Made by a program: the position numbers and the translations under genes. 64,000 bases of DNA, taken from positions 3,147-67,146 of the forward strand of contig JBMNEQ010000003.1 of assembly GCA_050948865.1 (NCBI GenBank). The letters run 5' to 3'. This document shows positions 406-53,471 of this stretch, one piece after another. Position 1 is the first letter of the stretch, and every line of letters begins with the position of its first letter. Source of the DNA: Bacilli bacterium. GTDB taxonomy: Bacteria; Bacillota_I; Bacilli_A; RF39; UBA660. Below the pieces are notes generated by a model. That model ran no database searches. It worked only from the letters and a program-made list of their open reading frames with translations, and was not told the origin of the DNA.

Positions 406-412
406 ATGTTTA

Positions 413-640
413 TAGCGTTGATGAGGAAGAGTAATATTAATACTATTTAAAAGAGAGTTAGGATGGTGGAATCTAACAATAAAGGTTAATATGAAAAACA
501 CCTTGTAGCTACTTACCGAAAGATAGTAGGCTAAGTCGGAAACCTCCGTTATCAGATTAAAGATGAGTGATCATTTTAATGATAAATGGGGTGGCACCGC
601 GGAATATAGTTTCGTCCCTTCTAGGGAGAAACTGTTTAAA
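413..640 (+). promoter_or_regulatory. T-box riboswitch-like leader with a probable Asn specifier.
   Basis: aaatggggtggcaccgcgg at 584-602 closely matches the T-box consensus AAUUAGGGUGGNACCGCG. AGAGAG at 452-457 fits the Stem I GA motif. Candidate specifiers AAC at 475-477 and AAU at 478-480 are each followed by A. A hairpin at 606-630 (agtttcgtccc...gggagaaact) followed by guuuaaaa is a candidate terminator. Confidence 0.55.
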
Positions 641-642
641 AG

Positions 643-718
643 GCCTAATTAGCTCAGTTGGTAGAGTACCCGGCTGTTAACCGGATCGTCGTAGGTTCGA
701 GTCCTACATTAGGCGCCA
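643..718 (+). tRNA. tRNA-Asn (anticodon GTT)
   Basis: 76 nt. Acceptor gcctaat/attaggc, anticodon loop ctGTTaa, T-arm ggttcgagtcc, encoded CCA. Confidence 0.9.
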
Positions 719-723
719 GATAA

Positions 724-799
724 GCCTGATTAGCTCAGTTGGTAGAGTACCCGGCTGTTAACCGGATTGTCGTAGGTTCGAGTCCTACATCAGGCGCCA
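724..799 (+). tRNA. tRNA-Asn (anticodon GTT), second copy with 3 substitutions
   Basis: Near-identical to the first copy. Acceptor gcctgat/atcaggc, loop ctGTTaa, CCA encoded. Confidence 0.9.
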
Positions 800-3919: not shown

Positions 3920-5227
3920 ATGGAAAGAATTTATGTTAAAGATTTAAAAGATTATCTTGGAAAAGAAATTATAATAAAAGGTTTTCTTAAAAAAATAAGG
4001 GAATTAAAACAAATAATATTTATTGATTTTAATGATATTAGTGGTGATATTCAATTAATTGTAGAAAAGGAACAAGAAAAATTAGTTAAAAAAGTTAAAG
4101 AAATAACTTTAGAGTCAGCAATAAAGGTTAATGGTAAAGTTAGAACTAAAAGTAAAGAGGAGTTAGAAATAGAAGTTTTAGATATAGAATGTTTTAGTTT
4201 AGCAGAAAAAAAACTTCCTATTGATTTTAGTGGTAAAACAGAAACTTCTTTGGAAATAAAATTAGATTGGCGTTATTTAGATTTACGAAATTATAATAAA
4301 AGTTTAATTTTTAAAGTGCAAACTTTATTAGAATCAGCTTTAAGAGAATATTTTAAGAAGAGATCCTTTATAGAAATTCATAGTCCTAAAATTATTGGGG
4401 CTCCTAGTGAATCAGGGGCTGAAGTTTTTGAACTTAACTATTATGAAGGAAAAGCTTTTTTAGCTCAATCGCCTCAATTTTATAAACAAATGGGAATGGC
4501 AGCGGGATTGGATAAAGTTTATGAAATAGGTCCTGTTTTTCGGGCTGATCGTTCTAGTACTAATGTTCATGCAGCAGAATTTACAGGAATTGATGCTGAG
4601 ATTTCTTGGATAGATTCTGAAGAAGAGGTTATGAAGTTAAAAGAAGAAATGCTTGTTTATACTATTAAAAAGGTTAAAGAGGTTTATGGAGAAGAAATAA
4701 AAACTGTTTTTAAAAAGGATTTAGTTATTCCCTCTTTACCATTTCCTAGAATTAAGATGAAAGAAGCTTTAGAAATAGTTAAAGAAAGAGGTCATTCTAA
4801 TCCTGGAAAACTTCATAGTGATTTAGATAGTGAAGGGGAACGTTTATTAGGGGACTTTATTAAAGAAACGAAAGGTCATGATTTTGTTTTTGTTACTGAT
4901 TTTCCTTATGTTAAAAGACCTTTTTATCATATGAAAAAGGAAACTGATCCAACCTTAACTAAAAGTTTTGATTTATTATATGGTGGTGTTGAAATAACTA
5001 CTGGAGCTCAAAGGGAACACCGTTATGATGTTCTTTTAGCTCAATCTAAGGAAAAAGGATTATCAGAAGAAAGCATTGGTTTTTATTTAGATTTCTTTAA
5101 ATATGGTTGTCCTCCTCATGGAGGATTTGGGAGTGGTTTAGCTCGTATTTTAATGGTGATGTTAGGCTTTGATAGTATAAAAGATGTTTCCTTTATTTTT
5201 AGAAACCAAACTCGTTTATGGCCTTAA
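3920..5227 (+). CDS. aspS: Archaeal-type (type 2) aspartyl-tRNA synthetase, probably non-discriminating
   Basis: 436 aa class IIb aaRS with the AspRS QSPQ motif (FLAQSPQFYKQ) and C-terminus GGFGSGLARI...RLWP. Co-located with gatCAB and tRNA-Asn. Confidence 0.8.
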   Translation: MERIYVKDLKDYLGKEIIIKGFLKKIRELKQIIFIDFNDISGDIQLIVEKEQEKLVKKVKEITLESAIKVNGKVRTKSKEELEIEVLDIECFSLAEKKLPIDFSGKTETSLEIKLDWRYLDLRNYNKSLIFKVQTLLESALREYFKKRSFIEIHSPKIIGAPSESGAEVFELNYYEGKAFLAQSPQFYKQMGMAAGLDKVYEIGPVFRADRSSTNVHAAEFTGIDAEISWIDSEEEVMKLKEEMLVYTIKKVKEVYGEEIKTVFKKDLVIPSLPFPRIKMKEALEIVKERGHSNPGKLHSDLDSEGERLLGDFIKETKGHDFVFVTDFPYVKRPFYHMKKETDPTLTKSFDLLYGGVEITTGAQREHRYDVLLAQSKEKGLSEESIGFYLDFFKYGCPPHGGFGSGLARILMVMLGFDSIKDVSFIFRNQTRLWP

Positions 5228-8094: not shown

Positions 8095-8802
8095 ATGATA
8101 AGATTACAAAAGGTTATTGCTAAATCAGGTTATACTTCTAGAAGAAAAGCTGAAGAATTAATTAAAAGGGGAAGGGTTTTAGTTAATGGAAAAGTAGTTC
8201 AAGAATTAGGAACAAAAGTTTCTAAGGAAGATATAATCGTAGTTAATGGCCTAATTTTAAAACAAGAACAAAAGGTTTATTATTTATTTTATAAACCAAG
8301 GGGAGTAGTCACAACAGTTAAAGATGATAAAAAGAGGAAAACTGTTTTAGATTTTTTTCCTTTAAAAGAAAGGATTTATCCAGTAGGAAGACTTGATTAT
8401 CATACTTCAGGCCTTTTATTATTAACTAATGATGGGGAACTTACTAATTATTTATTACATCCTAAAAATGAAATAGAAAAAGTTTATTTAGTTAAAATAA
8501 AAGGAATAGTAGATAATAAGATAATTAATCAATTAAAAAAGGGTGTTTTTATTGATGGTAGTATAAGTAAGGCTAAGAAAATTAAAGTGAATAAAAAGGA
8601 TTTAGAAAAACAAATCTCTTTTTTAGAAATAACTATTCATGAAGGTAAAAATCATCAAGTTAAAAAGATGTTTAATAAAGTAGGCTTAGATGTTTTAAAA
8701 TTAAAAAGAATTTGTTTTTCTTTTTTAAATTTAAAAGGATTAAAAACTGGAGAATATCGAAAGTTAACGATTAGAGAAATAAAAAAATTGTTTAGAGTTT
8801 AG
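8095..8802 (+). CDS. Pseudouridine synthase, RsuA/RluB family (S4 domain plus PseudoU_synth_2)
   Basis: MIRLQKVIAKSGYTSRRKAEELIKRGRVLVNG is an S4 domain. GRLDYHTSGLLLLTNDG is the catalytic Asp motif. ATG 8095 with RBS preferred over the upstream ORF extension. Confidence 0.85.
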   Translation: MIRLQKVIAKSGYTSRRKAEELIKRGRVLVNGKVVQELGTKVSKEDIIVVNGLILKQEQKVYYLFYKPRGVVTTVKDDKKRKTVLDFFPLKERIYPVGRLDYHTSGLLLLTNDGELTNYLLHPKNEIEKVYLVKIKGIVDNKIINQLKKGVFIDGSISKAKKIKVNKKDLEKQISFLEITIHEGKNHQVKKMFNKVGLDVLKLKRICFSFLNLKGLKTGEYRKLTIREIKKLFRV

Positions 8803-8912
8803 ATGAATTTTATTTGGAATAAAAAATGACAAATCATGTTAATTACCACTAAAAAAGTAGATTTCTAAAAAACGTTATGCTATAATTTTGGTAATAAAGG
8901 GAAGAGGTGGTA

Positions 8913-10634
8913 ATGTTGAAAAAAGAAGGTTTTACTTTAATAGAATTACTAGCAGTAATCGTTATTTTAGCAATTATCTTAGCAATATCTATACCTACAA
9001 TAACAGGCTTAATAGAAAGCACAACAAAAAATGCTTTTTTAATGGATGCCAAAATGGTTATTAAGGCAATAGATTATCAATTAATGGAAGGCTATGATTT
9101 AGAGAAAACACCAATTAATAAAGAGAATTTTGAAACAATCCTAAAATTAAGTACTAAAAACTATGAAGAAGTTATTGTTGTATCTAATGAAAAAAAGGAA
9201 CCTTATGTAAAATTAGTTGGTCAAAATAAATGGGCAGGTTTAACAGTATGTGGGACGTATAAGGATATGAAAATTGGGTCAACTACTGAAATAGTTTGTG
9301 AACCACCAGTTATTGCAGGAGATGAAGGTGGATGGGATTCTAATAAAGGAGTCAATCGTCCTCAATTAGCTAAGGGGATGATACCGGTTATATGGGATGA
9401 TAATGATGACTTAATTAAAAAAGGTGAAGCTGGTTGGAATGATGATTTATGGTATGATTACAAAAATGAGCAAAGATGGGCAAATGCAGTAAGTGTTCAC
9501 GATAATGAAATTATAGCATATTGGGTTTGGATACCAAGATATGTATATAAGATAACCAAATGTCATCACGGAATTGAAGAATGTATGCAGGATAATAATG
9601 AAGAGTTGTATGGTGAAATAAAAATATCTTTTACTAGGGGCACAGATGATGTTGCTCCTGATGGTGAATTAAAAAATACCTGTGAATATAACGCTGATGG
9701 GATACCTACTGGTGAGAATCCTTGTGCTAATGATTCTAATGGCACATGGTCAACTCATCCAGCTTTTACTTTTGGTTATGATGAAGATAAAGTTGAATTA
9801 ACGGGATTTTGGGTAGCAAAATTTGAACCTTCTCTTGCTGGAGATTGTACAGGAAATAATGATGGAAAACATTTAGATTATGTATGTCCTATAAATATTC
9901 TTCCTGGAAAAGAATCATGGCGAGCCACAAGAATAGGTGCCTATTTTAGTGCTTTTCGTAACATGGAAGTAGATGTTCGTTATGGTTGGGAGGTAGCAAG
10001 TGAGCTTCAAACAAGCGGAATGTTTTTACATGATAATAATGATGTAGATACTCATTTGATGAAAAACGTAGAATGGGGAGCAGTAGCCTATTTAGCAACA
10101 TCAGAATATGGGAAAAACGAAAGGATTGATAGAAATACTAGTTATGATTATTATACTGGTGGAAATAAGGCCTCATCTTATACTCAGGAAGATTCTTATA
10201 AATATAATGTAAAACAAAGTACTACAGGAAATGTAACTGGAATATATGATATGTCAGGAGGTGCATATGAATATACAGCGGCTTATGTAAATAATGAAAA
10301 TAGTAGTTTAACTACTTATGGTGAAGTAATAGTAAATGCTAATAAAAAGTATAAAGATGTTTATTTAGCAACAAATGATGGTCGAGTAAATAATTATAAT
10401 GAATCTGAATATAAAAAAGGAGATGCTATATGGGAAACAACAACTTCGTCTGGTACTACTAGTTCATGGTTTGGGGAATATTCTTATATGCCCTATTCGT
10501 CTGGTCCCTGGTTTCTACGGGGTGGCGACTGGAATAGTTCTAATTCGGGCGTCTTCTACTTCAACGGCAACAGTGGCAATGCTTTCAGCAGCGTCAGTGG
10601 GCGGGCCGTGGTGCTGGTAGCAAAAGGATTGTAA
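8913..10634 (+). CDS. Prepilin-type protein: N-terminal type IV pilin module fused to a C-terminal FGE-sulfatase/SUMF1-like domain
   Basis: Class III signal MLKKEG|FTLIELLAVIVIL with Glu at +5. The C-terminal part carries FGE-domain signatures GIYDMSGGAYEYT (compare GLYDMSGNVWEWT) and WFLRGGDWNSS...GRAVV (compare RGGSW...GFR). Confidence 0.7.
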   Translation: MLKKEGFTLIELLAVIVILAIILAISIPTITGLIESTTKNAFLMDAKMVIKAIDYQLMEGYDLEKTPINKENFETILKLSTKNYEEVIVVSNEKKEPYVKLVGQNKWAGLTVCGTYKDMKIGSTTEIVCEPPVIAGDEGGWDSNKGVNRPQLAKGMIPVIWDDNDDLIKKGEAGWNDDLWYDYKNEQRWANAVSVHDNEIIAYWVWIPRYVYKITKCHHGIEECMQDNNEELYGEIKISFTRGTDDVAPDGELKNTCEYNADGIPTGENPCANDSNGTWSTHPAFTFGYDEDKVELTGFWVAKFEPSLAGDCTGNNDGKHLDYVCPINILPGKESWRATRIGAYFSAFRNMEVDVRYGWEVASELQTSGMFLHDNNDVDTHLMKNVEWGAVAYLATSEYGKNERIDRNTSYDYYTGGNKASSYTQEDSYKYNVKQSTTGNVTGIYDMSGGAYEYTAAYVNNENSSLTTYGEVIVNANKKYKDVYLATNDGRVNNYNESEYKKGDAIWETTTSSGTTSSWFGEYSYMPYSSGPWFLRGGDWNSSNSGVFYFNGNSGNAFSSVSGRAVVLVAKGL

Positions 10635-10679
10635 TCCTTTTGCGACTTGCCCTGATTTCTTTTTCCCCTTTTTTTCCGA

Positions 10680-10753
10680 CCTTGTCAAGTTAACTGTGTA
10701 AGTTGTCTATTATTATTGTATCAAGGATTATAAATCTAAATGTTTTGTAATCC
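10680..10753. repeat. 74-bp repeat, copy 1, with an internal hairpin aaggatta...taatcctt. It overlaps the 3' end of the IS256-like transposase gene.
   Basis: Matches 12827-12900 in direct orientation with 3 mismatches. Contains ttaactgtgtaagt. Confidence 0.8.
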
Positions 10754-11790
10754 TTTTTTCATGCAATATTATTAATTGATTTAAGATTGTTTTCCAATTT
10801 CTCACACCTTTCGACCACTTTTCTTCTAAATCTCTTACTCTTAAATATAATACCTTTATTACAGCTTCTTTGCTTGGAAAACTTCCTTTCCCATTTGTTA
10901 CCTTTCTTAAGGCTGAATTTAATGACTCTATTGGATTTGTCGTATAGATTACTTTCCTTATTTCCTTGGGATATTCAAATAACAACAGTATATATTCCAT
11001 ACTATCATTTACTTTCTTTACTATTTTGGGGTATTTTTCTGAGTATTTATCGTTAAAGTTTTCTAATTCTATAAGAGCAGCTTCTTTTGTATTACTTTGA
11101 TATATCTTTTTATAATCACTCATAATATTCTTAGCCACTTTTTTTGGACATATCTTATAAAGATTCCTACATAAATGAACTACACACCTTTGAGTCAATG
11201 TATTTGGGTATACTGTTTCTATTGCAGTATCTAACCCTGTTAAGCCATCCATAGAAATAAATATTATATCCTCTACGCCTCGTTCTTTTATTTCCTCTAA
11301 AATCTCAGTCCAAAAAGTAGCTGATTCTGTTTCATTTAACCAAATCCCTAATACCTCCTTTTTACCATCTAAACCTATTCCTAACATTACATAAACAGCT
11401 GTCTTTTTACTTACCAAATCATTTTTAATTGGTATGAATAAACAATCTATATATATAAATGGATAAATACTTTTAAGTCTTCTATTTTGCCATTTAATAA
11501 CTTCTTCATTAACAGAAGAAATTAAATGGCTAATAAGAGTTTTACTAATATCTATTTTATATATTTTTATTAATAATTGCCTAATATCTTCTTGGGTTAA
11601 TCCCTTGGCATACATTCCAATAATTATATCATCATATCCTTTTAAAACCCTTTGTCTTTTTGATAATATTATAGGATCAAAACTACCATCTCTATCCCTT
11701 GGCATATCTACTTTTATTATTCCTTTATCTGTTTTAACAATTTTATTTTTACTTGAATAACGGCCCTGTATAATTAACTGTGTAAGTGCG
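10728..11790 (-). pseudogene. IS256-family (mutator-type) transposase, N-terminally truncated
   Basis: Core aligns to IS256 Tnp (PRDRDG, GIGLDG, ISMDGLTGL, CVVHL). Reading upstream of the first Met continues in-frame through LTQLIIQGRYSS to a stop near 11790. The first roughly 70 aa of the family are missing. Confidence 0.75.
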
Positions 11791-11810
11791 CGTTCGCACT
11801 ACACAGTTTT
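11777..11810. repeat. Imperfect palindrome aactgtgtaagtg-cgcgttc-gcactacacagtt at the truncation point of the IS256-like gene
   Basis: Read directly. The left arm equals the ttaactgtgtaagt motif present in both 74-bp repeats. Confidence 0.6.
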
Positions 11811-11833
11811 TTTAATAATGAGGAGGAAGAAAA

Positions 11834-12616
11834 ATGAAAGAAAAAGTTAATCAAATGAAAAACAGAAATTTAAAAGATTTATTCACAATTTTATATGTAG
11901 TAAAAAACCAAATAGAGGTTGTTGTTGATGATAATATTATTCATCAAAACTCTTATGTTATAACTGGAATGGATATTGCCGGAAACCGTTATATTATTGA
12001 TATTGTTATTGATGATAAAGAAAATAATAGATTTTGGCTAGACGTGTTTGAAAGTATAAAAAACAGAGGAGTTAAAAGAATCTTATTTTTAAGTATTGAA
12101 ACAAATAAAAATATTTCTAGAGCTTTAAAGATTAGTTTTCCTGATACTATTATTGTTTTCCCTTTAACTGATACAATTAATCAATTTTATAAATATATTA
12201 GCAGTAGAGGAAAAGGCAATATAAGTAAATTAATAAAAGATTTATGTATTCAACCTAATATTGAACAATTTACTTGTAAAGTTGAATTATTACAAGAACA
12301 ATATGTTAATAATTATATTGTTAATATTTTAATTAATAACAAATTAGAAGATATCAAACAAACATATAAATATGATGAGAATGTAAGAAAATTATTGTTT
12401 AGTCATAACAAAAATTTAGATATTTATGATAAGATTAATACATACTGTTTAAAGAATTATGTTAAAAATAATGAAGAATTATGGATTGAACTATGGGAAA
12501 CTATTTTATCTTTTGAGAAAAATAAATCTTTTAATAAACAAGCCTGGATGGAGATATTAAATGGTTTAACCTATAATTTTAACAATGAAATTATTGAAGC
12601 AATTAAGGAGAGTTAA
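11834..12616 (+). CDS. Divergent IS256-family transposase core-domain protein, truncated or domesticated, with the second catalytic Asp replaced by Glu
   Basis: SYVITGMDIAGNRY...NRFWLDVFESIKNRGVKRILFLSIE aligns with VYVMLGIGLDGKKE...ATFWTEILEEIKERGVEDIIFISMD of the neighbouring transposase. It has its own RBS gaggagg. Confidence 0.55.
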   Translation: MKEKVNQMKNRNLKDLFTILYVVKNQIEVVVDDNIIHQNSYVITGMDIAGNRYIIDIVIDDKENNRFWLDVFESIKNRGVKRILFLSIETNKNISRALKISFPDTIIVFPLTDTINQFYKYISSRGKGNISKLIKDLCIQPNIEQFTCKVELLQEQYVNNYIVNILINNKLEDIKQTYKYDENVRKLLFSHNKNLDIYDKINTYCLKNYVKNNEELWIELWETILSFEKNKSFNKQAWMEILNGLTYNFNNEIIEAIKES

Positions 12617-12618
12617 GT

Positions 12619-12849
12619 ATGAAGAAAAATGTTAAAAATAAAATAATTAATCAAATTTTAGAAAACACAAAAATAACTACCACTAAAGACATTAATAATG
12701 TATTAGATGATTTATATGGAAATATTATTCAAAGATTATTAGAAACTGAAATGGATAATCATTTAGGTTATGATAAAAACTCAAAAGAAGTTAAAGAAAC
12801 AAATAATAGAAGAAACGGTTATTCAAACCTTGTCAAGTTAACTGTGTAA
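12619..12849 (+). pseudogene. IS256-family transposase N-terminal fragment (76 aa) running into the 74-bp repeat
   Basis: ...EMDNHLGYDKNS...NRRNGYS resembles the IS256 Tnp N-terminus (EHLGYEK...QRNGYYERS). The ORF terminates inside ttaactgtgtaa. Confidence 0.55.
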
Positions 12850-12900
12850 GTTGTCTATTATTATTGTATCAAGGATTATAAATCTAAAAGCTTTGTAATC
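12827..12900. repeat. 74-bp repeat, copy 2
   Basis: Direct repeat of 10680-10753. Confidence 0.8.
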
Positions 12901-12988
12901 CTTGGTATAATCTCATATTTATCATTTTTTATAAGAAAAAACTTTTCTATGAGCCTATTTATAAGGCTTTGGGGAGTTTTTCTTATTT

Positions 12989-14020
12989 TTAAAAACTGCG
13001 TAAGTTTTTTGTTTTTGTAAAGGAGATAATTTTTTTTAAATTCTTTTCAGTTATTACTTCGTAATCAGTTCTGAAATCAAACTTTTTATGGATATAATCA
13101 GTTATATCTGTTCTGGTATAGGTTGGAATATAATTGTTTTTTTCTTTAAAAACGTTCATTCCTTTTAAAGTTTTTAGAAGTTCTTCAATTGTATATTTGT
13201 TATCTAATTTTTTTTCAAAGTATCTATAAATAATTAAAGCTAAGAAACAAGTTAAAAAGTGGGCTTTTATTCTTTCATCCTTTGATAAATATATGGGCCT
13301 AGATTTAAAATCATTTTTCATTATCCTAAAACACTCTTCCATTTCCCATGTTTGGTGATTAATATTAACTATTTCTTCAATCTCATCTTCGAGATTAGTG
13401 CATACTGCGTATAATCCGTCATATTGGGATTCTTCTAATATTGCATTTTGATCTAAATGATAATATTTTTTAGGAGCAATTTCCCCGTCAGAAGTAGTAT
13501 TTACTTCTTTAATAAATCTCTTAGGATCGTTTTGTTTAGCTTTTTCTAATTTTTTTAGATCAGAGTTGAGTAGTTTTAAAGCCCTTTCAATTTGTTTATT
13601 TCTAATCTTTTTTTGATATTCTTGATATTTTACGGAATAAGTAATAATTAATCTTTGTTCAAGTCCATCTTCTTTAATCCATCTTTCTTTATAAAAAGTT
13701 TTATTTCTAAAGGTTTGAATGAAAGCTTCCTCTTCTCTTAATTTAGAAATATCATAAGTTTTATTATTACCTAAAAGTTTCCAATCAGAAGATAAATCAA
13801 GTGCCCACTTCTTTAAAAATCTTTTTAATTTTTTAATCGATTGAGTGGTAATGAAACTTCTTTTGTGGGTGTTATTAAACTTTCTATTGGTTTTTGATGC
13901 AAGACCAGTATCACTGCAAACTATAAACTTTGATGTTTTAAAATCATTAATAATTTTTTCTTCTAATGGTTTTAAAGTAATTTGTTCATTTGTGTTTTCT
14001 TGGAGTAATATCAAAAGCAA
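12989..14020 (-). pseudogene. IS4-family (DDE_Tnp_1) transposase, probably N-terminally truncated
   Basis: C-terminal IS4 signature HQTWEMEECFRIMK (the Y/H-x-x-W-x-x-E-x-x-F-R-x-x-K pattern). 343 aa without the usual N-terminal region. Confidence 0.6.
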
Positions 14021-14170
14021 GAAGTAAGCAGTAAAAAAACAAAGAGGCAGAAAATTAAGTGTGCGATTTTTTTTGTAGTTATTAACATATGTTAAAGTAA
14101 TGTTGGTCTTTTTTCTATAAAAAAAAGACCATTATATTTAGGTAATGGTCTAAAATAATTTGAATTGTTT

Positions 14171-18160: not shown

Positions 18161-18275
18161 AAACATGCTTTTCTTGAAGAGAAGCCTTTAATTTTTATGA
18201 ATGATCTTTGAAAACTGAGCAAAACGTCAATTTGAGTAATCGGATTTAAACAAAGAAACAATAAAAATTTTTTTA

Positions 18276-19841
<1,566 letters not shown>

Positions 19842-20024
19842 TATGGAGTAATCTATTAGAAAAGAAAGATCTGATTAATATCGTTTTGCTTAGTTTTGAG
19901 AGATTGTTCTCTCAATTAAAAATAGTTCTTTGAAAACTTGGTAATGTGGTGGCTTTATTTTTTTAAATAAAGCATTAAGATCTCAAAGATCTCATCAAAT
20001 TAGGATAATATAAATATCAAAGGT

Positions 20025-22952
<2,928 letters not shown>

Positions 22953-23019
22953 AGATATTTAATTTTTAGTTTGATAGACCACATTACCATGTTTTCAGAG
23001 AATTATTTTTAAGATATTT

Positions 23020-23129
<110 letters not shown>

Positions 23130-34291: not shown

Positions 34292-34684
34292 ATGCAAAAA
34301 CAAGGATTTACTTTAATTGAGTTATTAGCGATTATTATTATTTTGGGAATACTTATTACTATTACTATTCCTAATGTTTCTAAAACAACAAAAGAGTTTA
34401 AAGATAAGTCTTATTCTTTATTAATAGAAAGTTTAGAAAATGGTGCTCAAATTTATGTTTCAAGAAATAGGTCTTTTATTCAAGAAAAAATTAATCAAGA
34501 AGGAGTTTATATAGTAAGATTATCTGATTTAAAAGAACTTAATTTAATTAAAGATAATCTAAGGGATCCAAGGACTAATAAGGTTATTTCTTTAAATAAA
34601 AAGATATATGTGATGTATGATTTAGATTTATCTTTGATTTATTGTTTCGAAGATAGGGATTGTCCAACCCCGTTTATTCCTTAA
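34292..34684 (+). CDS. Type IV pilin/pseudopilin (ComGC/PilA-like)
   Basis: MQKQG|FTLIELLAIIIILGIL prepilin signal with E+5. C-terminal YCFEDRDCPTP disulfide loop. Paralog of the 42966 pilin. Confidence 0.8.
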   Translation: MQKQGFTLIELLAIIIILGILITITIPNVSKTTKEFKDKSYSLLIESLENGAQIYVSRNRSFIQEKINQEGVYIVRLSDLKELNLIKDNLRDPRTNKVISLNKKIYVMYDLDLSLIYCFEDRDCPTPFIP

Positions 34685-40224: not shown

Positions 40225-42180
40225 GTGTTTAAAAAGTTGCTTTTACCTTTTAATTATTTTTTAGTGGGCCTTCTTGTTGTTGGAAAGAATTTTGTTTTAG
40301 GTGCTCAAATTAGTGGCGCTTTTTTCATTAAAATTCTATCTTATTTAGGTGATATTTTTAAACAATTTTTAATATTGTTAGGTAAAATAATAAAAGTTTT
40401 TTTCTTTTATACTTTATCGGGTTTAAGAATGTTTTTAAAATATATTTTTATATTGTTTAAGATAATAGCGTTTTATCTAGGAGAAATGTTAAAATTACTT
40501 TTTAAAGTTTTAATCTTTATTTTTCAAAAGATTGTTTTAGGAATAGAAACTATTTTGAATTTTCTTTATTTTTTACTTAAAAAATTATTTTTATTAGTGA
40601 TTAGTCTTTTAAAAATTCTTCAAAAAGGATTAATAAAAGTGTTTAAGTTTTTAACTTCTTTACCACTTTTACTTTGGCATGGTTTAAAATGGTTAGGAAA
40701 AATAATTTATATTATTTTTATATCACCATTTGTTTTTGTTGGTAAGTTCTTTCAAAGACTTTATGTTAGTTTGATTGATTCTTTAACAACTCTTTTTGAG
40801 AAGTTAAAAGAAAAAGCAAAAGAATTAAAGAATTTACCAAAGAAAATTCAAAAAGGTCTTTCTAATTGGTTTAATAATTTAAGTTTTATTAAAGATATGC
40901 GTAATCGTCGGGAAATGAAAAGGCAAGCATTATTAATTGATTTTGAGGCTGAAGAAGAAGTTCGAAGTGAAGAAAAAGTATTATATCGTTTTGTTGGAAA
41001 GAATCCTGATGGAAAAATAGAAAAAGGAAAGTTAAGCGCCTATTCTCGTTTAGATGTTCATTCTTATTTATTAGCAGAAGGTTATGAAGTATATGAAATT
41101 GAACCTTTTAAAGGATTAAATATTGCTTTAGGTAGTAATTTGAAAATTAAACCAGCGGAGTTAGTTTTTTTATTAACACAATTATCTACTTATATAAAAT
41201 CAGGAATTCCTTTAGTTGATTCTATTAAAATTTTATCTAAACAAAGTAAAAGAGCGGATAAAGTTTATTTATTTCGTTCTATAATTTATGAATTAACGAT
41301 GGGTGAAAGTTTCAGTGAGGCTTTAGCTAAACAAGGTAAAGTCTTTCCTCGTTTATTAGTTAATATGATAAAATCAGCTGAATTAGCTGGAAATTTACCA
41401 GAAACTTTAGATAGTATGGCTGATTATTATGATTCTGTAAATAAAACTAGAAAACAAATGATTACAGCAATGATGTATCCGACTGTTGTTTTTCTTTTTG
41501 CTACTATAATAATTGCTTTTATTTTACTTTTTGTTATTCCTGAATTTGTTACTATCTATAAAGATATGGGTAGTGAATTACCAGCTATCACTCGTTTTAC
41601 GGTCGGAGTAAGTGATTATTTACAAAATAATATAATCTTTATTATATTAGGTGTTATTGTTTTTGTTGTAAGTGTAACAATGATTTATTCTAATATTAAA
41701 GTATTTAAAATGTTAATTCAATGGATTTTAATGCATCTTCCAGTAGTAGGAAAGATTATTATTTATAATGAAGTAACGATGTTTTCTAAAACTTTTGGTT
41801 CTTTATTAAATCATAATGTTTTTATTACTGATAGTATGGAAATTTTAAGTAAGATTACTAATAATGAAATATATAAAATGTTGATTTTTGATACTATTAC
41901 CAATTTAGCAAAGGGAGAATCTATTTCTAAATCATTTAAGAATCATTGGGCTTTTCCTATTGTTGCTTATGAAATGTTATTAACAGGGGAAAGAACGGGT
42001 CAACCTGGTCCGATGATGGATAAGGTGGCGAATTATTATCAAGAGGAACACCGAAATGCTGTTAATCAAGTTAAGGTTTTTATTGAACCAGTTATGATTG
42101 TAGCATTAACAGTTATTGTTGGGTTTATTTTATTATCTGTTATTTTACCGATGTTTAGTTTATATGGTAATCTTGGTTAG
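40225..42180 (+). CDS. Type IV pilus/T2SS platform protein (PilC/GspF/ComGB-like) with a roughly 225-aa N-terminal hydrophobic K/L/F/I-rich extension
   Basis: The C-terminal roughly 420 aa carry two T2SSF-type halves with polytopic TMs. GTG start with strong RBS aggaggtg 8 nt upstream. The N-terminal extension is a low-complexity amphipathic repeat. Confidence 0.75.
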   Translation: MFKKLLLPFNYFLVGLLVVGKNFVLGAQISGAFFIKILSYLGDIFKQFLILLGKIIKVFFFYTLSGLRMFLKYIFILFKIIAFYLGEMLKLLFKVLIFIFQKIVLGIETILNFLYFLLKKLFLLVISLLKILQKGLIKVFKFLTSLPLLLWHGLKWLGKIIYIIFISPFVFVGKFFQRLYVSLIDSLTTLFEKLKEKAKELKNLPKKIQKGLSNWFNNLSFIKDMRNRREMKRQALLIDFEAEEEVRSEEKVLYRFVGKNPDGKIEKGKLSAYSRLDVHSYLLAEGYEVYEIEPFKGLNIALGSNLKIKPAELVFLLTQLSTYIKSGIPLVDSIKILSKQSKRADKVYLFRSIIYELTMGESFSEALAKQGKVFPRLLVNMIKSAELAGNLPETLDSMADYYDSVNKTRKQMITAMMYPTVVFLFATIIIAFILLFVIPEFVTIYKDMGSELPAITRFTVGVSDYLQNNIIFIILGVIVFVVSVTMIYSNIKVFKMLIQWILMHLPVVGKIIIYNEVTMFSKTFGSLLNHNVFITDSMEILSKITNNEIYKMLIFDTITNLAKGESISKSFKNHWAFPIVAYEMLLTGERTGQPGPMMDKVANYYQEEHRNAVNQVKVFIEPVMIVALTVIVGFILLSVILPMFSLYGNLG

Positions 42181-42192
42181 AAAGGTTAAAAG

Positions 42193-42948
42193 ATGTTAGA
42201 TATATATATAATACTTTTCTTTATTTTAGGTTCAATTATGGGCTCTTTTTATAATGTAGTGGGGGATCGTCTTCCTTTAGAAAAATCTATTATAAAACCA
42301 CCATCTCATTGTCCTAATTGTCAAAAAAAGTTAACTTTTATAGAATTAATTCCAATTATTTCTTATCTTCTTCAATTAGGTAAATGCCGAAAATGTAAAA
42401 CTAAATTATCTATTTCTTATCTTTTATCAGAGGTAGGAACAGGTTTAATTTTTGTTTTATGTTATTTAACTTTTAATTTGTCTAATGAATTATTAATTGC
42501 TTTAGTTTTTAGTTCTGTTTTAATAATAGTAATAATTAGTGATTTAAAATATTTAATTATTCCTGATGAATTATTATTATTTGGAGGCATTTGTCTTTTT
42601 ATTATAAGATTAATAATGGGTTCTTCTTTTTTAACATTATTAATTAATGTTTTTATTCCTTTTTTGGTTCTTTTATTAATTAAGATCTTTGGGGATTTTC
42701 TTTTTCAAAAAGAATCATTGGGGGGTGGTGATATTAAACTAATGCCTTTATTTGGTTTAGTTTTAGGTTGGGAATTAACGTTAGTTTCTATCTTCTTTTC
42801 AGCTTTTTTAGCTTTACCAATATCTTTAGTTATTCTTCATTTAAAAAGAACTAATATTATTCCTTTTGGTCCTTTTCTTAGTCTTTCTGCTTATATTATA
42901 TATTTATCAAAACTAGATATTTCTTGGATTATAAATTTAATTGTTTAA
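42193..42948 (+). CDS. Prepilin peptidase (A24 family; PilD/ComC-like)
   Basis: N-terminal CPNCQKKL...CRKCKTKL zinc-binding pairs. Polytopic. GGGDIKLM catalytic-region motif. Confidence 0.85.
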   Translation: MLDIYIILFFILGSIMGSFYNVVGDRLPLEKSIIKPPSHCPNCQKKLTFIELIPIISYLLQLGKCRKCKTKLSISYLLSEVGTGLIFVLCYLTFNLSNELLIALVFSSVLIIVIISDLKYLIIPDELLLFGGICLFIIRLIMGSSFLTLLINVFIPFLVLLLIKIFGDFLFQKESLGGGDIKLMPLFGLVLGWELTLVSIFFSAFLALPISLVILHLKRTNIIPFGPFLSLSAYIIYLSKLDISWIINLIV

Positions 42949-42965
42949 TTAAGAGGTGAAATTTA

Positions 42966-43355
42966 ATGAATAAAAAAGGATTTACTTTAATAGAAATGAT
43001 GACTGTTATTATTATTCTTTTACTTTTAGCAACAATAGTTTTAGTAGGTGTTTCTAAGGCTTTTAAAGCAATTAAAATGAATGCTTATTATATGCTAACT
43101 AACGAATTTGAAGCTGCGGCTAGAGAATATATAAAATTAGATAAAAATAAGTTAAAAGGTTTATCAAAAGCTACTCCTATTTTAGAAATAGAATTGGGGG
43201 ATCTAATAAATATAAATAATTTAAAAGAACCCTTGATTGATCCTAGGGATGATTCAGTAATTCCTTTAAATAAAAAGGTTTTAGTTATTTTAACTGAGAA
43301 TAATCAAATTCAGTATTGTTATGAGGATAATGATTGTCCTAATCCAATAGAATAA
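42966..43355 (+). CDS. Type IV pilin (paralog of 34292)
   Basis: MNKKG|FTLIEMMTVIIILLLL. C-terminal YCYEDNDCPNP. Confidence 0.8.
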   Translation: MNKKGFTLIEMMTVIIILLLLATIVLVGVSKAFKAIKMNAYYMLTNEFEAAAREYIKLDKNKLKGLSKATPILEIELGDLININNLKEPLIDPRDDSVIPLNKKVLVILTENNQIQYCYEDNDCPNPIE

Positions 43356-43360
43356 CGTAG

Positions 43361-44365
43361 GTGGTTGGTATGCAAATTATAATTTTAATAATTTTAGGTA
43401 TAATTTATTTTTTACCGTCCTGGGAATTACAAGTTCCTTTAGTGTTAGGTCTTTCTTTTTTTTGGATAATAGTTATATTTTTAACTTTTATTTTTATTTA
43501 TAAAAAAAGGGCTAAAGAATATCCACCTAAATTTAAGGAAGAAAGATTAACAGAGCCACCAACTAAAAGAACACCTGAACAATTAGGCTATTTATTTAAA
43601 CGTCGTTTAAATATAAATCATTTAATTTCTAATTTTATGGAATTGATTCGAAAGGAAGCTGTGATAGTAGATAAAAATAAAGAAACATTTATCTTTTATT
43701 TTTCTAAAGAGTTTAAAGAAGAATTAACAAAATCAGAACAATATTTAATAAATTGGTTTTTTAATAGAATGGGTAATGGAGAAAGTTTTTCCTTAAACAG
43801 TTTTAAAAAAAGGGCCTTTACTGATAGTGGTTTTTTTATGAGATGTTATTATGAATGGCAAGAAATTGTAATGTTTGAAGGTTTAAAATGTTTTTTTTTT
43901 GAATCTAAACGAGATATTTTAGAAAGAAGTTTAGGTTATTTATTTTTATCATTCTTATTAATATTTTTAAATATAGTTGTTATTACAAATAGATATTTAA
44001 TTTTAATCATGTTTTTAATTTTAATTTTATTTACTTCTTATTTAGGACGTTTTATAAGAAGGACTAAAGAAGCGAATGAGGAATATTATAAGTGGAGAGC
44101 TTTTAAAAGATTTTTAGAAGATAAAGAAAAGATTGATCTTAAAAAGATAGAGAAATGGTCTATTTATGCTCAAGTTTTTAGAGTTTTGCCTCAATTTAAA
44201 TCTAAAATACCTAAAAATTTAGAAAAGATAAATAGTCCTTTATTAGACTGTATTAAAGATGGAACAATAGAAAAGATTGAACAAGTATTTAAAAAAAGTT
44301 TATTTATTGCTAAAATTAAAGGAGGAATATTTTCTTTTAATAGAGGGAATAATCCAGGTTATTAA
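43361..44365 (+). CDS. Polytopic membrane protein of unknown function (possibly DUF2207-like)
   Basis: Two N-terminal TMs and two central TMs. C-terminal YKWRAFKRFLEDKEKIDL...WSIYAQVF motif. Operonic between the pilin and ATPase genes. Confidence 0.5.
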   Translation: MVGMQIIILIILGIIYFLPSWELQVPLVLGLSFFWIIVIFLTFIFIYKKRAKEYPPKFKEERLTEPPTKRTPEQLGYLFKRRLNINHLISNFMELIRKEAVIVDKNKETFIFYFSKEFKEELTKSEQYLINWFFNRMGNGESFSLNSFKKRAFTDSGFFMRCYYEWQEIVMFEGLKCFFFESKRDILERSLGYLFLSFLLIFLNIVVITNRYLILIMFLILILFTSYLGRFIRRTKEANEEYYKWRAFKRFLEDKEKIDLKKIEKWSIYAQVFRVLPQFKSKIPKNLEKINSPLLDCIKDGTIEKIEQVFKKSLFIAKIKGGIFSFNRGNNPGY

Positions 44366-44382
44366 AAAAGGAGGATGTTAAA

Positions 44383-46170
44383 ATGTTGGGAAAAATAATT
44401 TCTACAAAAGGGGATCTTATTGAAGTAAAATTAGAAACTGAATTATCTAAAATAGGAAAGATGGTCAATTATCATATTGTTTTTGAAGAAGATAATATTA
44501 AGATTATTGGAGAAATAAAGGATATTGATATAAATATAGCTAGTGTTGTTTTAGTTGGAGAGATTAGAAATGACATATTTTATGCGGGTATTACAAGAAA
44601 ACCTTCTCTTAATTTAAGTTGCCGAGTTATTAATAAAGAAGAATTAAAAATAATTCTTGGAGAAAATGTTTTGTTTGGTAAAAATATGCTTAACTTAGGA
44701 GCGGTTCCTTTATACGGTAATTATTCGATGAATGTTGATGTTAATGAATTTTTTAGTAATCATTTTGCTATTTTTGGTAATACTGGTAGTGGTAAATCTT
44801 ATTCAGTTACAAAAATTCTTCAAAATCTTTTTTATAATAAAAAGGAAGTAGCGGTGAATGCTAAAATCTTTTTGTTTGATGCTTATGGGGAATATCATAA
44901 TGCTTTTAAAAGGATTAATGAGTATTCTGATAAACTTCATTTTAAAACTTATACAACTAATTTATCCTTCCCTGATAGTGAAGTATTAAAGATACCTCTT
45001 TGGCTGCTTGGCGTTGATGATATTGCCTTATTATTAGGGGCTGATAATCATATTCAATTACCAATTATTGAAAAAGCATTAAGACTTGTTTCTATTTTTG
45101 CTAAAGAAGAAGAAGAAGTAATAATTTATAAAAATGATATTATTGCAAGGGCATTATTAGAAATCTTATATAGTGGTAATACTCCTTCTCAAATAAGGGA
45201 TCAAATCTTTGCTGTTTTAACAGCTTTTAATACTAAAGATCTAAGTTTAGAAAGTAAATTAATTCAACCAGGTTATATTAGAACTTTAAGGCAATGTTTA
45301 ATTATTGATCGAGATGGTAAATTAGCTGAAATGCAGTTGGTAACTGAATTTATTACTAGTTTTATTAAAGAAGGTTTAGATTTATTATTACCGGATGGTT
45401 CTTTTCCATATACTTTAGATGATTTAAAAGATGCTTTTGATTTTGCTTTAATCTCGGAAGGAATTTTAAAAAGTGATCGGGTTTATGATTATGCGAATAT
45501 TTTAAAAGTAAGACTTCATTCTTTAATTAATAGTGATAATCGTTACTTTTTAGATTATAAAGGTTTTATTAGTAAAAAGGATTATATTAACCAATTATCA
45601 ATTACTCCTGATGGTAAAAGAGCTCAGATTATTAATTTTAATATTAATTATATAGATGATCGTTTAGCTAAAACTGTTACTAAAATTTATTCAAAAATGT
45701 TATTTGATTATTCAGCTGAATTAGGAGAAAGAGCTTCAGAACCAATTCATATAATTTTAGAAGAGGCTCATCGTTATGTTCAAAATGATAATGATTTATT
45801 TTTATTAGGTTATAATATATTTGATCGAATTACTAAAGAGGGTAGAAAATATGGAATTATTTTAGGACTTATTTCCCAGCGGCCTTCAGAATTAAGTGAA
45901 ACTTCTTTATCACAATGTTCTAACTTTTTAATTTTTAGAATGCTTCATCCTCATGATTCTACTTTTATTAAAAATATGGTTCCCAACATAACAGGGGAAA
46001 TTGTGGAAAAGTTAAAATCCTTACAAGCAGGAACTTGTATTGCTTTTGGTTTAGCTTTTAAATTACCAGTAATTGTTCAGTTTGATCTACCTAATCCTCC
46101 TCCTAAAAGTCATAACGCTAATGTGGCTTTAAGATGGTATCAAAAAGAAGATGAGATTGAAGAACTTTAA
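44383..46170 (+). CDS. HerA/FtsK-superfamily ATPase: HAS-barrel N-domain plus DUF87-type P-loop domain
   Basis: Walker A FAIFGNTGSGKSYSV. Walker B/DEAH-like HIILEEAHRYV. LISQRPSELSETSLSQCSNFLIFRM. Not GspE/PilB-like: no Asp/His boxes and no GPTGSGKT. Confidence 0.7.
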   Translation: MLGKIISTKGDLIEVKLETELSKIGKMVNYHIVFEEDNIKIIGEIKDIDINIASVVLVGEIRNDIFYAGITRKPSLNLSCRVINKEELKIILGENVLFGKNMLNLGAVPLYGNYSMNVDVNEFFSNHFAIFGNTGSGKSYSVTKILQNLFYNKKEVAVNAKIFLFDAYGEYHNAFKRINEYSDKLHFKTYTTNLSFPDSEVLKIPLWLLGVDDIALLLGADNHIQLPIIEKALRLVSIFAKEEEEVIIYKNDIIARALLEILYSGNTPSQIRDQIFAVLTAFNTKDLSLESKLIQPGYIRTLRQCLIIDRDGKLAEMQLVTEFITSFIKEGLDLLLPDGSFPYTLDDLKDAFDFALISEGILKSDRVYDYANILKVRLHSLINSDNRYFLDYKGFISKKDYINQLSITPDGKRAQIINFNINYIDDRLAKTVTKIYSKMLFDYSAELGERASEPIHIILEEAHRYVQNDNDLFLLGYNIFDRITKEGRKYGIILGLISQRPSELSETSLSQCSNFLIFRMLHPHDSTFIKNMVPNITGEIVEKLKSLQAGTCIAFGLAFKLPVIVQFDLPNPPPKSHNANVALRWYQKEDEIEEL

Positions 46171-48053: not shown

Positions 48054-48130
48054 GGACGATTAGCTCAGTTGGTTAGAGCACTTGCCTTACAAGCAAGGGG
48101 TCGTAGGTTCGAGTCCTACATTGTCCACCA
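48054..48130 (+). tRNA. tRNA-Val (TAC)
   Basis: ggacgat...anticodon loop ctTACaa...ggttcgagtcc...attgtccacca. Confidence 0.9.
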
Positions 48131-48135
48131 GAGAG

Positions 48136-48211
<76 letters not shown>

Positions 48212-48217
48212 GTGATA

Positions 48218-48301
48218 GGAGAGGTAGCGAAGTGGTCAAACGCGACAGACTGTAAATCTGTTCTTTCGGGTTCGAAGGTTCAAATCCTTCTCTCTCCACC
48301 A
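48218..48301 (+). tRNA. tRNA-Tyr (GTA), long variable arm
   Basis: ggagagg...loop ctGTAaa...cctctccacca. Confidence 0.9.
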
Positions 48302-48304
48302 AAT

Positions 48305-48379
48305 TGCCTCGTAGCCAAGTGGTAAGGCATCAGACTTTGACTCTGACATTCGTTAGTTCGAATCTAGCCGAGGCAGCCA
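48305..48379 (+). tRNA. tRNA-Gln (TTG)
   Basis: tgcctcg...loop ctTTGac...cgaggcagcca. Confidence 0.85.
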
Positions 48380-48386
48380 ATTTTCT

Positions 48387-48463
48387 GCTCCGTTAGCTCA
48401 GTTAGGTAGAGCATTTGACTTTTAATCAAAGGGCCATAGGTTCGAATCCTATACGGGGCACCA
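48387..48463 (+). tRNA. tRNA-Lys (TTT)
   Basis: gctccgt...loop ctTTTaa...acggggcacca. Confidence 0.9.
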
Positions 48464-48466
48464 TGG

Positions 48467-48555
48467 GCTTGTGTGGCGGAATAGGTAGACGCACAGGACT
48501 TAAAATCCTGGGGGAATAAAATCTCGTGCCGGTTCAATTCCGGCCACAAGCACCA
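48467..48555 (+). tRNA. tRNA-Leu (TAA), class II
   Basis: gcttgtg...loop ctTAAaa...long variable arm...cacaagcacca. Confidence 0.9.
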
Positions 48556-48562
48556 TTTAAAT

Positions 48563-48654
48563 GGAGGAATACCCAAGATGGCTGAAGGGGTCGGTCTTGA
48601 AAACCGAAAGGTCGTGAAAGCGGCGCGGGGGTTCAAATCCCTCTTCCTCCGCCA
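48563..48654 (+). tRNA. tRNA-Ser (TGA), class II
   Basis: ggaggaa...loop ctTGAaa...long variable arm...ttcctccgcca. Confidence 0.9.
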
Positions 48655-48666
48655 TAAATTTAATAT

Positions 48667-48742
48667 CGCGGGATGGAGCAGTTGGTAGCTCGTTGGGCTC
48701 ATAACCCGAAGGTCGTTGGTTCAAATCCAGCTCCCGCAACCA
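48667..48742 (+). tRNA. Initiator tRNA-fMet (CAT)
   Basis: cgcggga...ggg-ctCATaa-ccc...cccgcaacca. Shows the C1:A72 mismatch and three G-C pairs in the anticodon stem, as in bacterial initiators. Confidence 0.9.
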
Positions 48743-52436: not shown

Positions 52437-53471
52437 ATGGGTGGTATGTTTAAGGTTCAAAAACAAGGTTTTACTTTAATTGAATTACTAGCAGTAATAG
52501 TTATTTTGGCTATAGTCTTGGCTATAGCTTTACCGTCTATTACAGGATTAATAGGAAATACTACAGAAAGAGCTTTTTTAATGGATGCAAAAATGGTAAT
52601 AAAAGCAATAGACTATCAACTTTTAGAAGGTTATGATTTAGAAAAAGAACCAATTAATGATGGAATTAATTTTGAAGAAGTACTAAATCTAAGTGCTAAA
52701 AATTATGAAAGTGTTAGTGTATCACTTGATGAAAATGATGAACCATATGTAATGTTAGTAGGTCAAAATAAATGGGAAGGATTAACCGTTTGTGGAACTT
52801 TTAAAGATATGAAGGTAGGGCAAACGGAAGAAATAGTATGTGAGGTACCGGAAGATAATTTTATTTGTGGTGAGGATACAATTTTACATGGTGGATATTC
52901 TTATAAAACAGCAAAAATAGATAATCAGTGTTGGTTTGCGGAGAATTTAAGGTATACAGATTATAAAGATGAAGGAGGAAAATCTTGTTTAGAGAAACAA
53001 TTTTATTCTGAAACAAAGGCTTGTGCTTCTCATACAAAAGATACGGATGGAAAATGTGTAGGCTATTGTAATTGGGAAGGTGAGGAAGTATTATATCAAT
53101 GGGAAGCGATTTTTGGTGATAAGCCATTAATAGAAGAAAGTCAAGGATTATGCCCATTGGGATGGCATATACCAAGTAAAGATGATTGGGAAGTTTTAAT
53201 TGATGGAAAAAGTGATGTTGGTAATAAATTAAAAGCAGGGGGACCTTTTTGGGATGGTAGTAATCAATATAAATTTAATGCTTTACCTGTGGGTGCTCGT
53301 GAATATGATTCAGGATATCTTACAGTGGTTGGTTCAAATTTAACATGGTGGTCTTCCACATCAAATAATTTAAGTGCTTGGGTTTATTATGTTGAAACAG
53401 ACACTTCAGAAATTAAATTCCAGACAGCTGGTAAAGATTATGGCTTTTCAGTTCGTTGTCTTAAAAATTAA
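52437..53471 (+). CDS. Prepilin-type protein: pilin N-terminal module fused to a C-terminal FISUMP (Fibrobacter succinogenes major paralogous) domain
   Basis: M(GG)MFKVQKQG|FTLIELLAVIVILAIVLAIALPSITG. The first roughly 150 aa are about 75% identical to the 8913 pilin. C-terminus CWFAENLRY...LCPLGWHIPSKDDWEVL...WWSST...GFSVRCLKN matches the FISUMP/TIGR02145 pattern. Confidence 0.7.
   Translation: MGGMFKVQKQGFTLIELLAVIVILAIVLAIALPSITGLIGNTTERAFLMDAKMVIKAIDYQLLEGYDLEKEPINDGINFEEVLNLSAKNYESVSVSLDENDEPYVMLVGQNKWEGLTVCGTFKDMKVGQTEEIVCEVPEDNFICGEDTILHGGYSYKTAKIDNQCWFAENLRYTDYKDEGGKSCLEKQFYSETKACASHTKDTDGKCVGYCNWEGEEVLYQWEAIFGDKPLIEESQGLCPLGWHIPSKDDWEVLIDGKSDVGNKLKAGGPFWDGSNQYKFNALPVGAREYDSGYLTVVGSNLTWWSSTSNNLSAWVYYVETDTSEIKFQTAGKDYGFSVRCLKN

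Follow-up and report, generated by a model that had tools for sequence, protein, structure and literature searches.

No bacterial surface filaments are more widespread than type IV pili, and the source of their binding specificity is an active question. Diversity-generating retroelements (DGRs) are, to our knowledge, the only system by which prokaryotes naturally direct hypermutation at particular proteins: a reverse transcriptase (RT) copies the RNA of a template repeat (TR) and misincorporates opposite adenines, and the resulting cDNA replaces a variable repeat (VR). Here we describe a gene at 8913..10634 (+) within a 64-kb stretch of contig JBMNEQ010000003.1 from a Bacilli bacterium of the RF39 lineage; this whole stretch of 64,000 nucleotides, which has a G+C content of 27.7%, is referred to below as the window. 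The gene probably encodes a bimodular type IV pilin with a DGR-diversified outer module, a C-type-lectin fold of the formylglycine-generating enzyme (FGE) type, and hence a reprogrammable adhesin, whose cassette is incomplete in this strain.

The closest described relatives of the outer module are the DGR variable proteins TaqVP of Thermus aquaticus (PDB 5vf4), TvpA of Treponema denticola and Mtd of a Bordetella phage. TaqVP and Mtd have been described as C-type lectins of the FGE subtype (PMC6328139), and TvpA lacks FGE activity (PMC5758913). These proteins resemble the one described here in having a VR at the extreme C-terminus, fixed scaffold residues, variable positions that are AAY codons in the template, and a GC-rich end resembling the element for initiation of mutagenic homing (IMH), followed by an inverted repeat (PMC6328139, PMC5758913). 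In a DGR target, the variable repeat ends in an IMH and has an inverted repeat downstream of it (PMC5758913). However, TaqVP and the lipoprotein TvpA each consist of a single domain and Mtd forms the tip of a phage tail fibre, whereas the module described here extends over about 435 residues, has large inserts and is joined to a type IV pilin module. It also differs in that the global template-modelling (TM) scores reach only about 0.4, in that the window holds neither TR nor RT, and in that a related contig, L105, carries an identical IMH-like block and hairpin at both the VR and a TR-like copy.

For the pilin half, the nearest precedents are the modular type IV pilins of S. sanguinis (Raynaud et al. 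2021, PMC8179133), where the outer part is a vWA module in PilB and a ConA-like lectin module in PilC. The likeness extends to the small class III pilin module, the short linker, the bulky predicted ligand-binding module and the presence of two such pilins per monoderm genome; the present protein differs in that the graft is an FGE-type C-type-lectin fold and a hypermutation target, and in that the gene lies outside the pilus locus. Nowhere in its main text does the S. sanguinis paper use the word sulfatase. DGRs have also been found to diversify the tip adhesins BfrT, BthT and BunT of Type V pili in Bacteroides (bioRxiv 10.1101/2024.11.15.621889). There too a pilus adhesin has a C-type-lectin head that is rewritten by a DGR, with Avd and MutS-like accessory proteins and in mobile loci, but Type V pili are assembled by strand exchange from lipoprotein pilins in diderm Bacteroidota and their loci move by integrative and conjugative elements or phage, whereas here we are concerned with PilD-processed type IV pilins in low-GC Bacilli and with insertion sequences (IS) of the IS256 family. 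Finally, FGE/SUMF1 enzymes (PF03781) share the fold subtype and remnants of motifs with our protein, which differs in having no catalytic cysteines, a family score below cut-off, and binding proteins as its closest structures. As regards type IV pilins as DGR targets, the parts of the literature covered by our search yielded no more than a brief reference to a GspG-type pilin domain as one of the rare target domains; the survey by Roux et al. 2021 is silent on them in its main text, and a search for "diversity-generating" together with prepilin or pseudopilin found nothing relevant. Both components are known, namely FGE-type C-type-lectin DGR targets and modular pilins, and it is their combination on a type IV pilin that is a new variant.

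The open reading frame (ORF) at 8913..10634 is intact, encoding 573 amino acids plus a stop codon in a stop-free translation, and a GAGGTGG ribosome-binding site is found about 7 nt 5' of the ATG. The identical 573-residue protein was independently assembled in the Joint Genome Institute (JGI) sample 3300053716 (L087) and in the Logan assembly SRR31065934 (L088). A preliminary description of the gene, made from the sequence alone, proposed a class III prepilin N-terminus (MLKKEG|FTLIELL) with glutamate at position +5, and this is borne out. The N-terminus reads MLKKEG|FTLIELLAVIVILAIILAISIP, with a short basic leader, Gly-1, Phe+1, Glu+5 and a stretch of about 20 hydrophobic residues, as in the N-terminal methylation and cleavage motif. 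The protein scores 27.0 bits with Pfam N_methyl (PF07963; cut-off 21.2) and 27.1 with TIGR02532 (cut-off 16.3); as these scores lie over the cut-offs, the predicted prepilin motif is beyond chance. The leader peptide MLKKEG (8913..8930, +) is predicted to be cleaved by PilD after Gly6.

The structure of the whole protein was predicted using AlphaFold (AF2) with 80 homologues as input, giving a predicted local distance difference test (pLDDT) of 87 and a predicted TM score (pTM) of 0.82. The model shows a pilin fold, in which a long hydrophobic α1 packs on an antiparallel β-sheet. This pilin module (8931..9308, +; mature residues 7-132) comprises a helix at 9-58, which carries Glu+5, and four strands at 84-91, 97-103, 110-114 and 119-123, with pLDDT mostly >85 and a Cys113/Cys129 pair near the end of the module. 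A profile built from the 80 homologues matched solved type IV pilins over up to 98 residues, the best being S. sanguinis PilE1 (8pfb, E 6e-12); a search of PDB sequences with the single protein matched only pilin N-termini. The module is followed by a linker (9309..9329, +; residues 133-139), in which pLDDT is <50 at residues 134-138, and then by the outer module. The preliminary description had seen here an extracellular region of roughly 420 residues; it consists rather of a 132-residue pilin module, a short linker and a single module of about 435 residues. The protein has the features of a modular pilin sensu Raynaud et al. 2021, with a short linker and a C-terminal module that is also found in non-pilin proteins.

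The evidence for hypermutation comes from the end of the gene. Of the 33 tail codons (approximately 536-568), 16 have C in the third position, compared to 28 of 535 elsewhere in the gene (Fisher p 4.6e-11), and the G+C content at third codon positions is 0.67 in the tail as against about 0.15 in the gene body. The tail includes the codon run GGC GTC TTC TAC TTC AAC GGC AAC AGT GGC AAT GCT TTC AGC AGC GTC AGT. The VR lies at 10490..10617 (+), where 10490 is the point at which homology to the template-like copy described below begins, and its substitutions fall at 10503-10596. It ends in an invariant GC-rich block, GGGCGGGCCGTGGTGCTGG (10599..10617, +), which is identical in the VR of the window and in both the VR allele and the template-like copy of L105, and which forms the 3' limit of the substitutions. 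On the basis of the DGR literature (PMC5758913), this block looks like an IMH element. Immediately beyond it, a perfect hairpin, GCAAAAGGAT-TGTA-ATCCTTTTGC (10620..10643, +; 10-bp stem, 4-nt loop, fold z -3.7), spans the stop codon and is a candidate for the inverted repeat of a DGR target site. Hairpins are found at the equivalent place after the VR in the homologous loci L046, L111 and L113. An intrinsic terminator was considered for this hairpin and rejected, a scan of 8700-10800 having given no terminator-like site. With a codon switch that is confined to the tail and followed by the GC-rich block and then by the hairpin, the last 45 or so codons of the gene have the layout of a DGR variable repeat, which lies in a C-type-lectin fold.

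To search for a template, the relation "template base = VR base or A" was coded as an IUPAC pattern and scanned on metagenome contigs of other samples. Of 21 matches, 20 were (AAC)n microsatellites; the one real match was L105 (Ga0172377_10053343), a contig from a different metagenome. Nucleotides 1-117 of L105 are the 3' end of another allele of the gene, with GC-rich block, hairpin and 33-nt flank identical to those of the window. About 170 nt downstream of this VR, at nt ~286-441, is a non-coding template-like copy, with in-frame stops just upstream, in which AAC or AAT stands opposite GGT, GAC, TAC, GGC, AGT, TTC and AGC codons of the window. Between the VR of the window and this copy there are 12 mismatches, 10 of them at template adenines, so that 10 of 36 template A sites are substituted in the window as against 2 of 109 non-A sites (p 1.4e-5). 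The two VR alleles that we have seen (the window and L105 nt 1-41) differ at 8 of 41 comparable nucleotides, and 7 of these 8 differences are at template adenines. The conserved core pattern of VR and TR gave 0 matches in viral contigs.

The protein belongs to a family of more than 7,700 matches, mostly from metagenome-assembled genomes (MAGs) labelled "Bacilli bacterium". From these, 80 genome loci were sampled, 78 of which were used for analysis of the codon switch and 55 ORFs for that of N-terminal anchors. Approximately 26 of the 78 ORFs have the same 3' codon switch. Intact DGR cassettes occur beside some family members. L046 encodes a 551-residue prepilin, followed 3' by a TR and by genes for MutS_I-like, bAvd and RVT_1 proteins, and 16 of its 17 TR/VR mismatches are at template adenines. 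L110, which was reached via relatives of the RT, also encodes a 551-residue prepilin and has the same TR/MutS_I/bAvd/RVT_1 cassette, with 21 of 21 mismatches at adenines. The peptides encoded by the templates align position by position with that of the window, as NPWF.RGGN.N...N.G.FNFNNN.G. RT and Avd genes are also found downstream of family genes in L043 and L072, and the DGRs of L111 and L113, which are of the same clade, have hairpins immediately 3' of the VR. When the 80 loci were compared with themselves and filtered for adenine bias, only L046 came out cleanly; L043 and L072 were missed despite their RT and Avd genes, and no TR was recovered at L072.

We note that in all the DGR cassettes of this clade a small ORF resembling MutS domain I lies upstream of the bAvd and RT genes (L046 9683..9934, L110 5296..5667, L111 5281..5673 and L113 1097..1483), and that these ORFs resemble the MutS-like type of accessory gene in the DGR literature. 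L111 has two tandem template-like copies (4452..4589 and 4850..4987) upstream of one DGR cassette; its target is a 1108-residue protein containing DUF5011, encoded on the opposite strand.

The outer module (9330..10631, +; residues 140-573) is predicted to be a single compact domain with large inserts. An AF2 model of this part alone, made with 90 sequences, has a pLDDT of 90.5 and a pTM of 0.94. Foldseek searches of the PDB, with the models of both the whole protein and the module, gave TaqVP (5vf4, E 3e-7) and Mtd (1yu3, E 1.6e-3 to 1.3e-2) and nothing else of significance; in the sequence profile search, TaqVP was the sole non-pilin PDB chain, at a non-significant E of 0.97. Among the predicted viral structures in BFVD, the top match was a phage protein annotated as "sulfatase-modifying factor enzyme-like" (SUMF1-like, E 5.9e-8), followed by phage tail-fibre proteins. 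All the signature strings quoted in the preliminary description are present (GIYDMSGGAYEYT at residues 443-455, RGGDW at 536-540 and GRAVV at 563-567), and the FGE-type domain that it recognised stands as a fold, although not as an assignment to the Pfam family. The models thus indicate a C-type-lectin core of the FGE type with large inserts, so that the fold first proposed is right in kind. Missing from that proposal were the DGR variable repeat at the C-terminus and the strain-specific, IS-rearranged insertion in which the gene lies; with these, the reading shifts to a hypervariable ligand-binding domain on a pilin.

This insertion is 5.37 kb long (8794..14165), lies between rluB and a ferredoxin gene, and consists of the target gene and IS debris. 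Two near-identical strains (L081 and L082, with flanks 97-99.9% identical) have approximately 19 bp in place of 8794-14165. It is present, with an identical gene, in L087, a contig of 9.2 kb belonging to the same JGI sample, and in the Logan assembly, and it is polymorphic within one JGI sample (Ga0534105_00077 versus Ga0534105_07887). In L105 the target unit adjoins mraZ instead. To judge from these sequence comparisons, the target gene is a strain-variable, IS-associated cargo.

Directly abutting the 33-nt flank of the VR in the window is a rearranged IS256-family element (10678..12903), recognised by Pfam Transposase_mut and by comparison with what is apparently the same element, intact, in L105. 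It contains a truncated transposase of 325 residues (10728..11705, -), a 260-residue Transposase_mut ORF within an inverted segment (11834..12616, +) and a repeated IS end (12827-12903); beside it is a DDE_Tnp_1 ORF, a fragment (12989..14020). Compared to L105, the window lacks nt ~118-441, which cover the spacer as well as the template-like repeat with its hairpin, and the segment 1516-2587 is inverted. Because the IS is truncated, partly inverted and duplicated at its end, and L105 ~118-441 is missing, the arrangement points to an IS-adjacent deletion, which would have removed the template, together with an inversion. The VR allele of the window was then probably diversified in the past and is now frozen, unless a DGR at another place in the genome acts on it in trans. 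Since the IS256 copy that adjoins the two VR alleles is apparently the same, diversification may have gone on once the IS had arrived, which would imply an RT acting in trans. An IS256 element with paired Transposase_mut ORFs of 400-410 and 260-265 residues recurs beside DGR targets of different MAGs (L105 442..2587 and L111 10797..12799).

A number of observations weigh against a DGR-diversified pilin. No TR was found in the window, either by blastn (word size 7) with the 3' end of the gene or by a "VR base or A" scan of both strands, which gave only A-rich noise. No RT was found there by a YxDD scan of long ORFs or by tblastn with the RT and Avd of L046, and in a near-identical strain neither of the 10-kb stretches that continue the window on its two sides contains RVT_1. 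The template-like copy comes from a metagenome other than that of the window, has two differences from the VR that are not at adenines (GCC TGT versus GTC/TTC AGT), and carries an IMH-like block and a hairpin identical to those of the VR, unlike the Bordetella paradigm; it may itself be target-like or mutagenised. The structural similarity is local, covering the lectin core only, with low TM-scores (0.37-0.44, root-mean-square deviation ~10 Å); no FGE enzyme is among the significant PDB matches from Foldseek; and PF03781 (FGE-sulfatase) matches residues 383-473 below threshold, at 15.7 bits (E 0.012) against a cut-off of 23.3. No PilB/GspE-type ATPase is encoded in the 64 kb. Lastly, the C-terminal module also occurs behind non-pilin N-termini, including Listeria-Bacteroides repeats, so that the module does not need incorporation in a pilus in order to work. 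Separately, we note that the codon pair GCC TGT in the template-like copy, where both VR alleles have NTC AGT, would be in accord with mutagenesis of adenines in the template.

The missing ATPase and the non-pilin N-termini bear on the question of whether the protein is a pilus subunit at all. It could be a DGR-diversified surface protein whose prepilin N-terminus serves as a PilD-processed anchor or export signal, as in pseudopilins or other proteins with class III signal peptides that do not form part of long filaments; the lectin-fold module would in that case lie at the cell surface. The family would allow this: the same module stands behind many types of anchor, comprising GFTLIE prepilins, GITLIAL-type sequences and plain signal or transmembrane anchors, with a canonical GFTLIE-type motif in only 14 of the 55 ORFs, and there are non-pilin variants with Listeria-Bacteroides repeats or DUF5011. 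So would the location of the gene outside the pilus gene cluster, and the missing ATPase. Against this, the N-terminal part is a complete pilin module and not a signal alone, having Glu+5, a 50-residue α1, a four-stranded sheet and a Cys pair, and there is precedent for the polymerisation of bulky modular pilins (PMC8179133). The window also encodes other pilus components. These are a PilD-like prepilin peptidase, which is the predicted processing enzyme for the target (42193..42948, +; Pfam A24_N_bact 108.8 bits, Peptidase_A24 58.1 bits); a platform protein of the PilC/GspF type, which has a long extension at its N-terminus (40225..42180, +; T2SSF 165 bits in two repeats); and three further prepilins, two of them small (129-130 residues) and one modular. 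We therefore regard a mere surface anchor as unlikely.

One of the small prepilins (129 residues, 42966..43355, +; N_methyl above cut-off) is a candidate major pilin, and the other (34292..34684) is a paralogue 39% identical to it. Both fit the role of major pilin better than the target does, in keeping with the earlier view of the target as an adhesin- or effector-bearing pilin and not a major one. The remaining prepilin (52446..53471, +) is a second modular pilin, which carries a Fibrobacter succinogenes major paralogous domain (Fib_succ_major, PF09603, 92 bits). Its first 132 residues are approximately 70% identical to the pilin module of the target (77.7% at the nucleotide level), which also speaks against a mere anchor, and the homology between the two stops at CEPP/CEVP. 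Because nearly the same pilin module precedes Fib_succ_major, the two genes show a modular design in which one carrier pilin module is joined to two different outer domains. The second modular pilin, which is also found in a near-identical strain (L084), was considered as a DGR target and rejected, having neither the 3' codon signature nor a repeat.

We also considered whether the target might be a static lectin-like or adhesin pilin, with an odd 3' end that arose from horizontal transfer or from composition bias. The failure to find TR and RT in the window would agree with this, as would the approximately two thirds of homologues without the 3' codon switch, and the sister modular pilin, which has no such signature. 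Against it, the switch is limited to about 35 codons and is of the NNC type. The template-like copy has AAC or AAT exactly at the positions that differ, the second allele varies at those same positions, and the adenine-specific mismatches in the intact cassettes of homologues (16 of 17 and 21 of 21) are as described above. This evidence largely refutes a static pilin, which we consider very improbable.

That the module might be a catalytic FGE/SUMF1-type enzyme on a pilus, generating formylglycine or acting as some other oxidase, is hardly credible: it has in its favour a weak similarity to PF03781 and the FGE-like motifs GIYDMSGG and RGGDW, but its Pfam score is under the cut-off, its structurally closest proteins are non-enzymatic DGR binders, among whose kin TvpA is without FGE activity (PMC5758913), and it has no Cys after residue 325, which makes the Cys pair of an FGE active site impossible. 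The cysteines of the target are at 113, 129, 217, 224, 257, 271, 312 and 325 only. There is consequently no counterpart to the catalytic pair of FGE (Cys336/Cys341 in human FGE), which excludes the enzymatic option; in the place that corresponds to the active site the target has its VR, which contains no Cys, and no invariant Cys column is found in the C-terminal part across 80-90 homologues. PF03781 gives weak matches in 17 of the 80 homologues at E<0.01, the best being 2.5e-4. The preliminary description had left open a putative binding or a catalytic module; of these, the catalytic reading is not supported.

On the reading that we favour, a bimodular pilin with a diversified lectin module, the MLKKEG leader would be removed by the PilD-like peptidase, and the 126-residue mature pilin module would serve as membrane anchor and allow incorporation in a filament of the 129-130-residue pilins, where the protein would probably be a low-abundance or tip subunit. 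The lectin-fold module would be presented outside and could bind a ligand there. Approximately 10 or more solvent-exposed residues of the ligand face would be randomised, with the scaffold (W, RGG, G, F, F, G, R-V) kept fixed, and the outcome would be a pilus-borne adhesin of rewritable specificity.

Other features of the window may be mentioned briefly. The genes for PilC/T2SSF, PilD and the 129-residue pilin form part of an unusual cluster resembling that of a type IV filament (40225..46170, +), which continues with a DUF2207_C membrane protein (43361..44365, +) and a HerA/DUF87-type ATPase (44383..46170, +); the N-terminal membrane extension of its PilC/T2SSF protein is approximately 300 residues long. 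There is a complete rRNA operon (16S, 23S and 5S) at 18272..23127. A run of nine tRNA genes at 48054..48739 gives rise to a spurious ORF (48364..48702). Upstream of gatCAB are a T-box leader and, after it, two tRNAs (409..796). A protein of 1026 residues (56638..59718, +) is unusually long and has repeated segments weakly resembling sigma-70 regions 2/4.

We tentatively suggest, as a possibility that goes beyond the single gene, that uncultured low-GC Bacilli and Mollicutes-like bacteria of the gut and of anaerobic habitats have a large and so far uncharacterised family in which DGRs rewrite a lectin-fold binding face borne on type IV pilins. Such "programmable" type IV pili would parallel the DGR-diversified Type V tips of Bacteroides while being independent of them, and in this lineage the unit of target plus template would move with IS256 elements, apart from the RT. 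The window offers a clean natural example both of decay of a cassette, with template loss by IS-adjacent deletion, and of its movement, in the form of a 5.4-kb strain-specific insertion. If a type IV pilin is indeed a DGR target, then the ability to reach out and retract would come from the filament, and a very large choice of binding sites from the retroelement. Given that the family is large and is found in poorly known Bacilli of the gut and of anaerobic environments, this could matter for colonisation or for attachment between cells.

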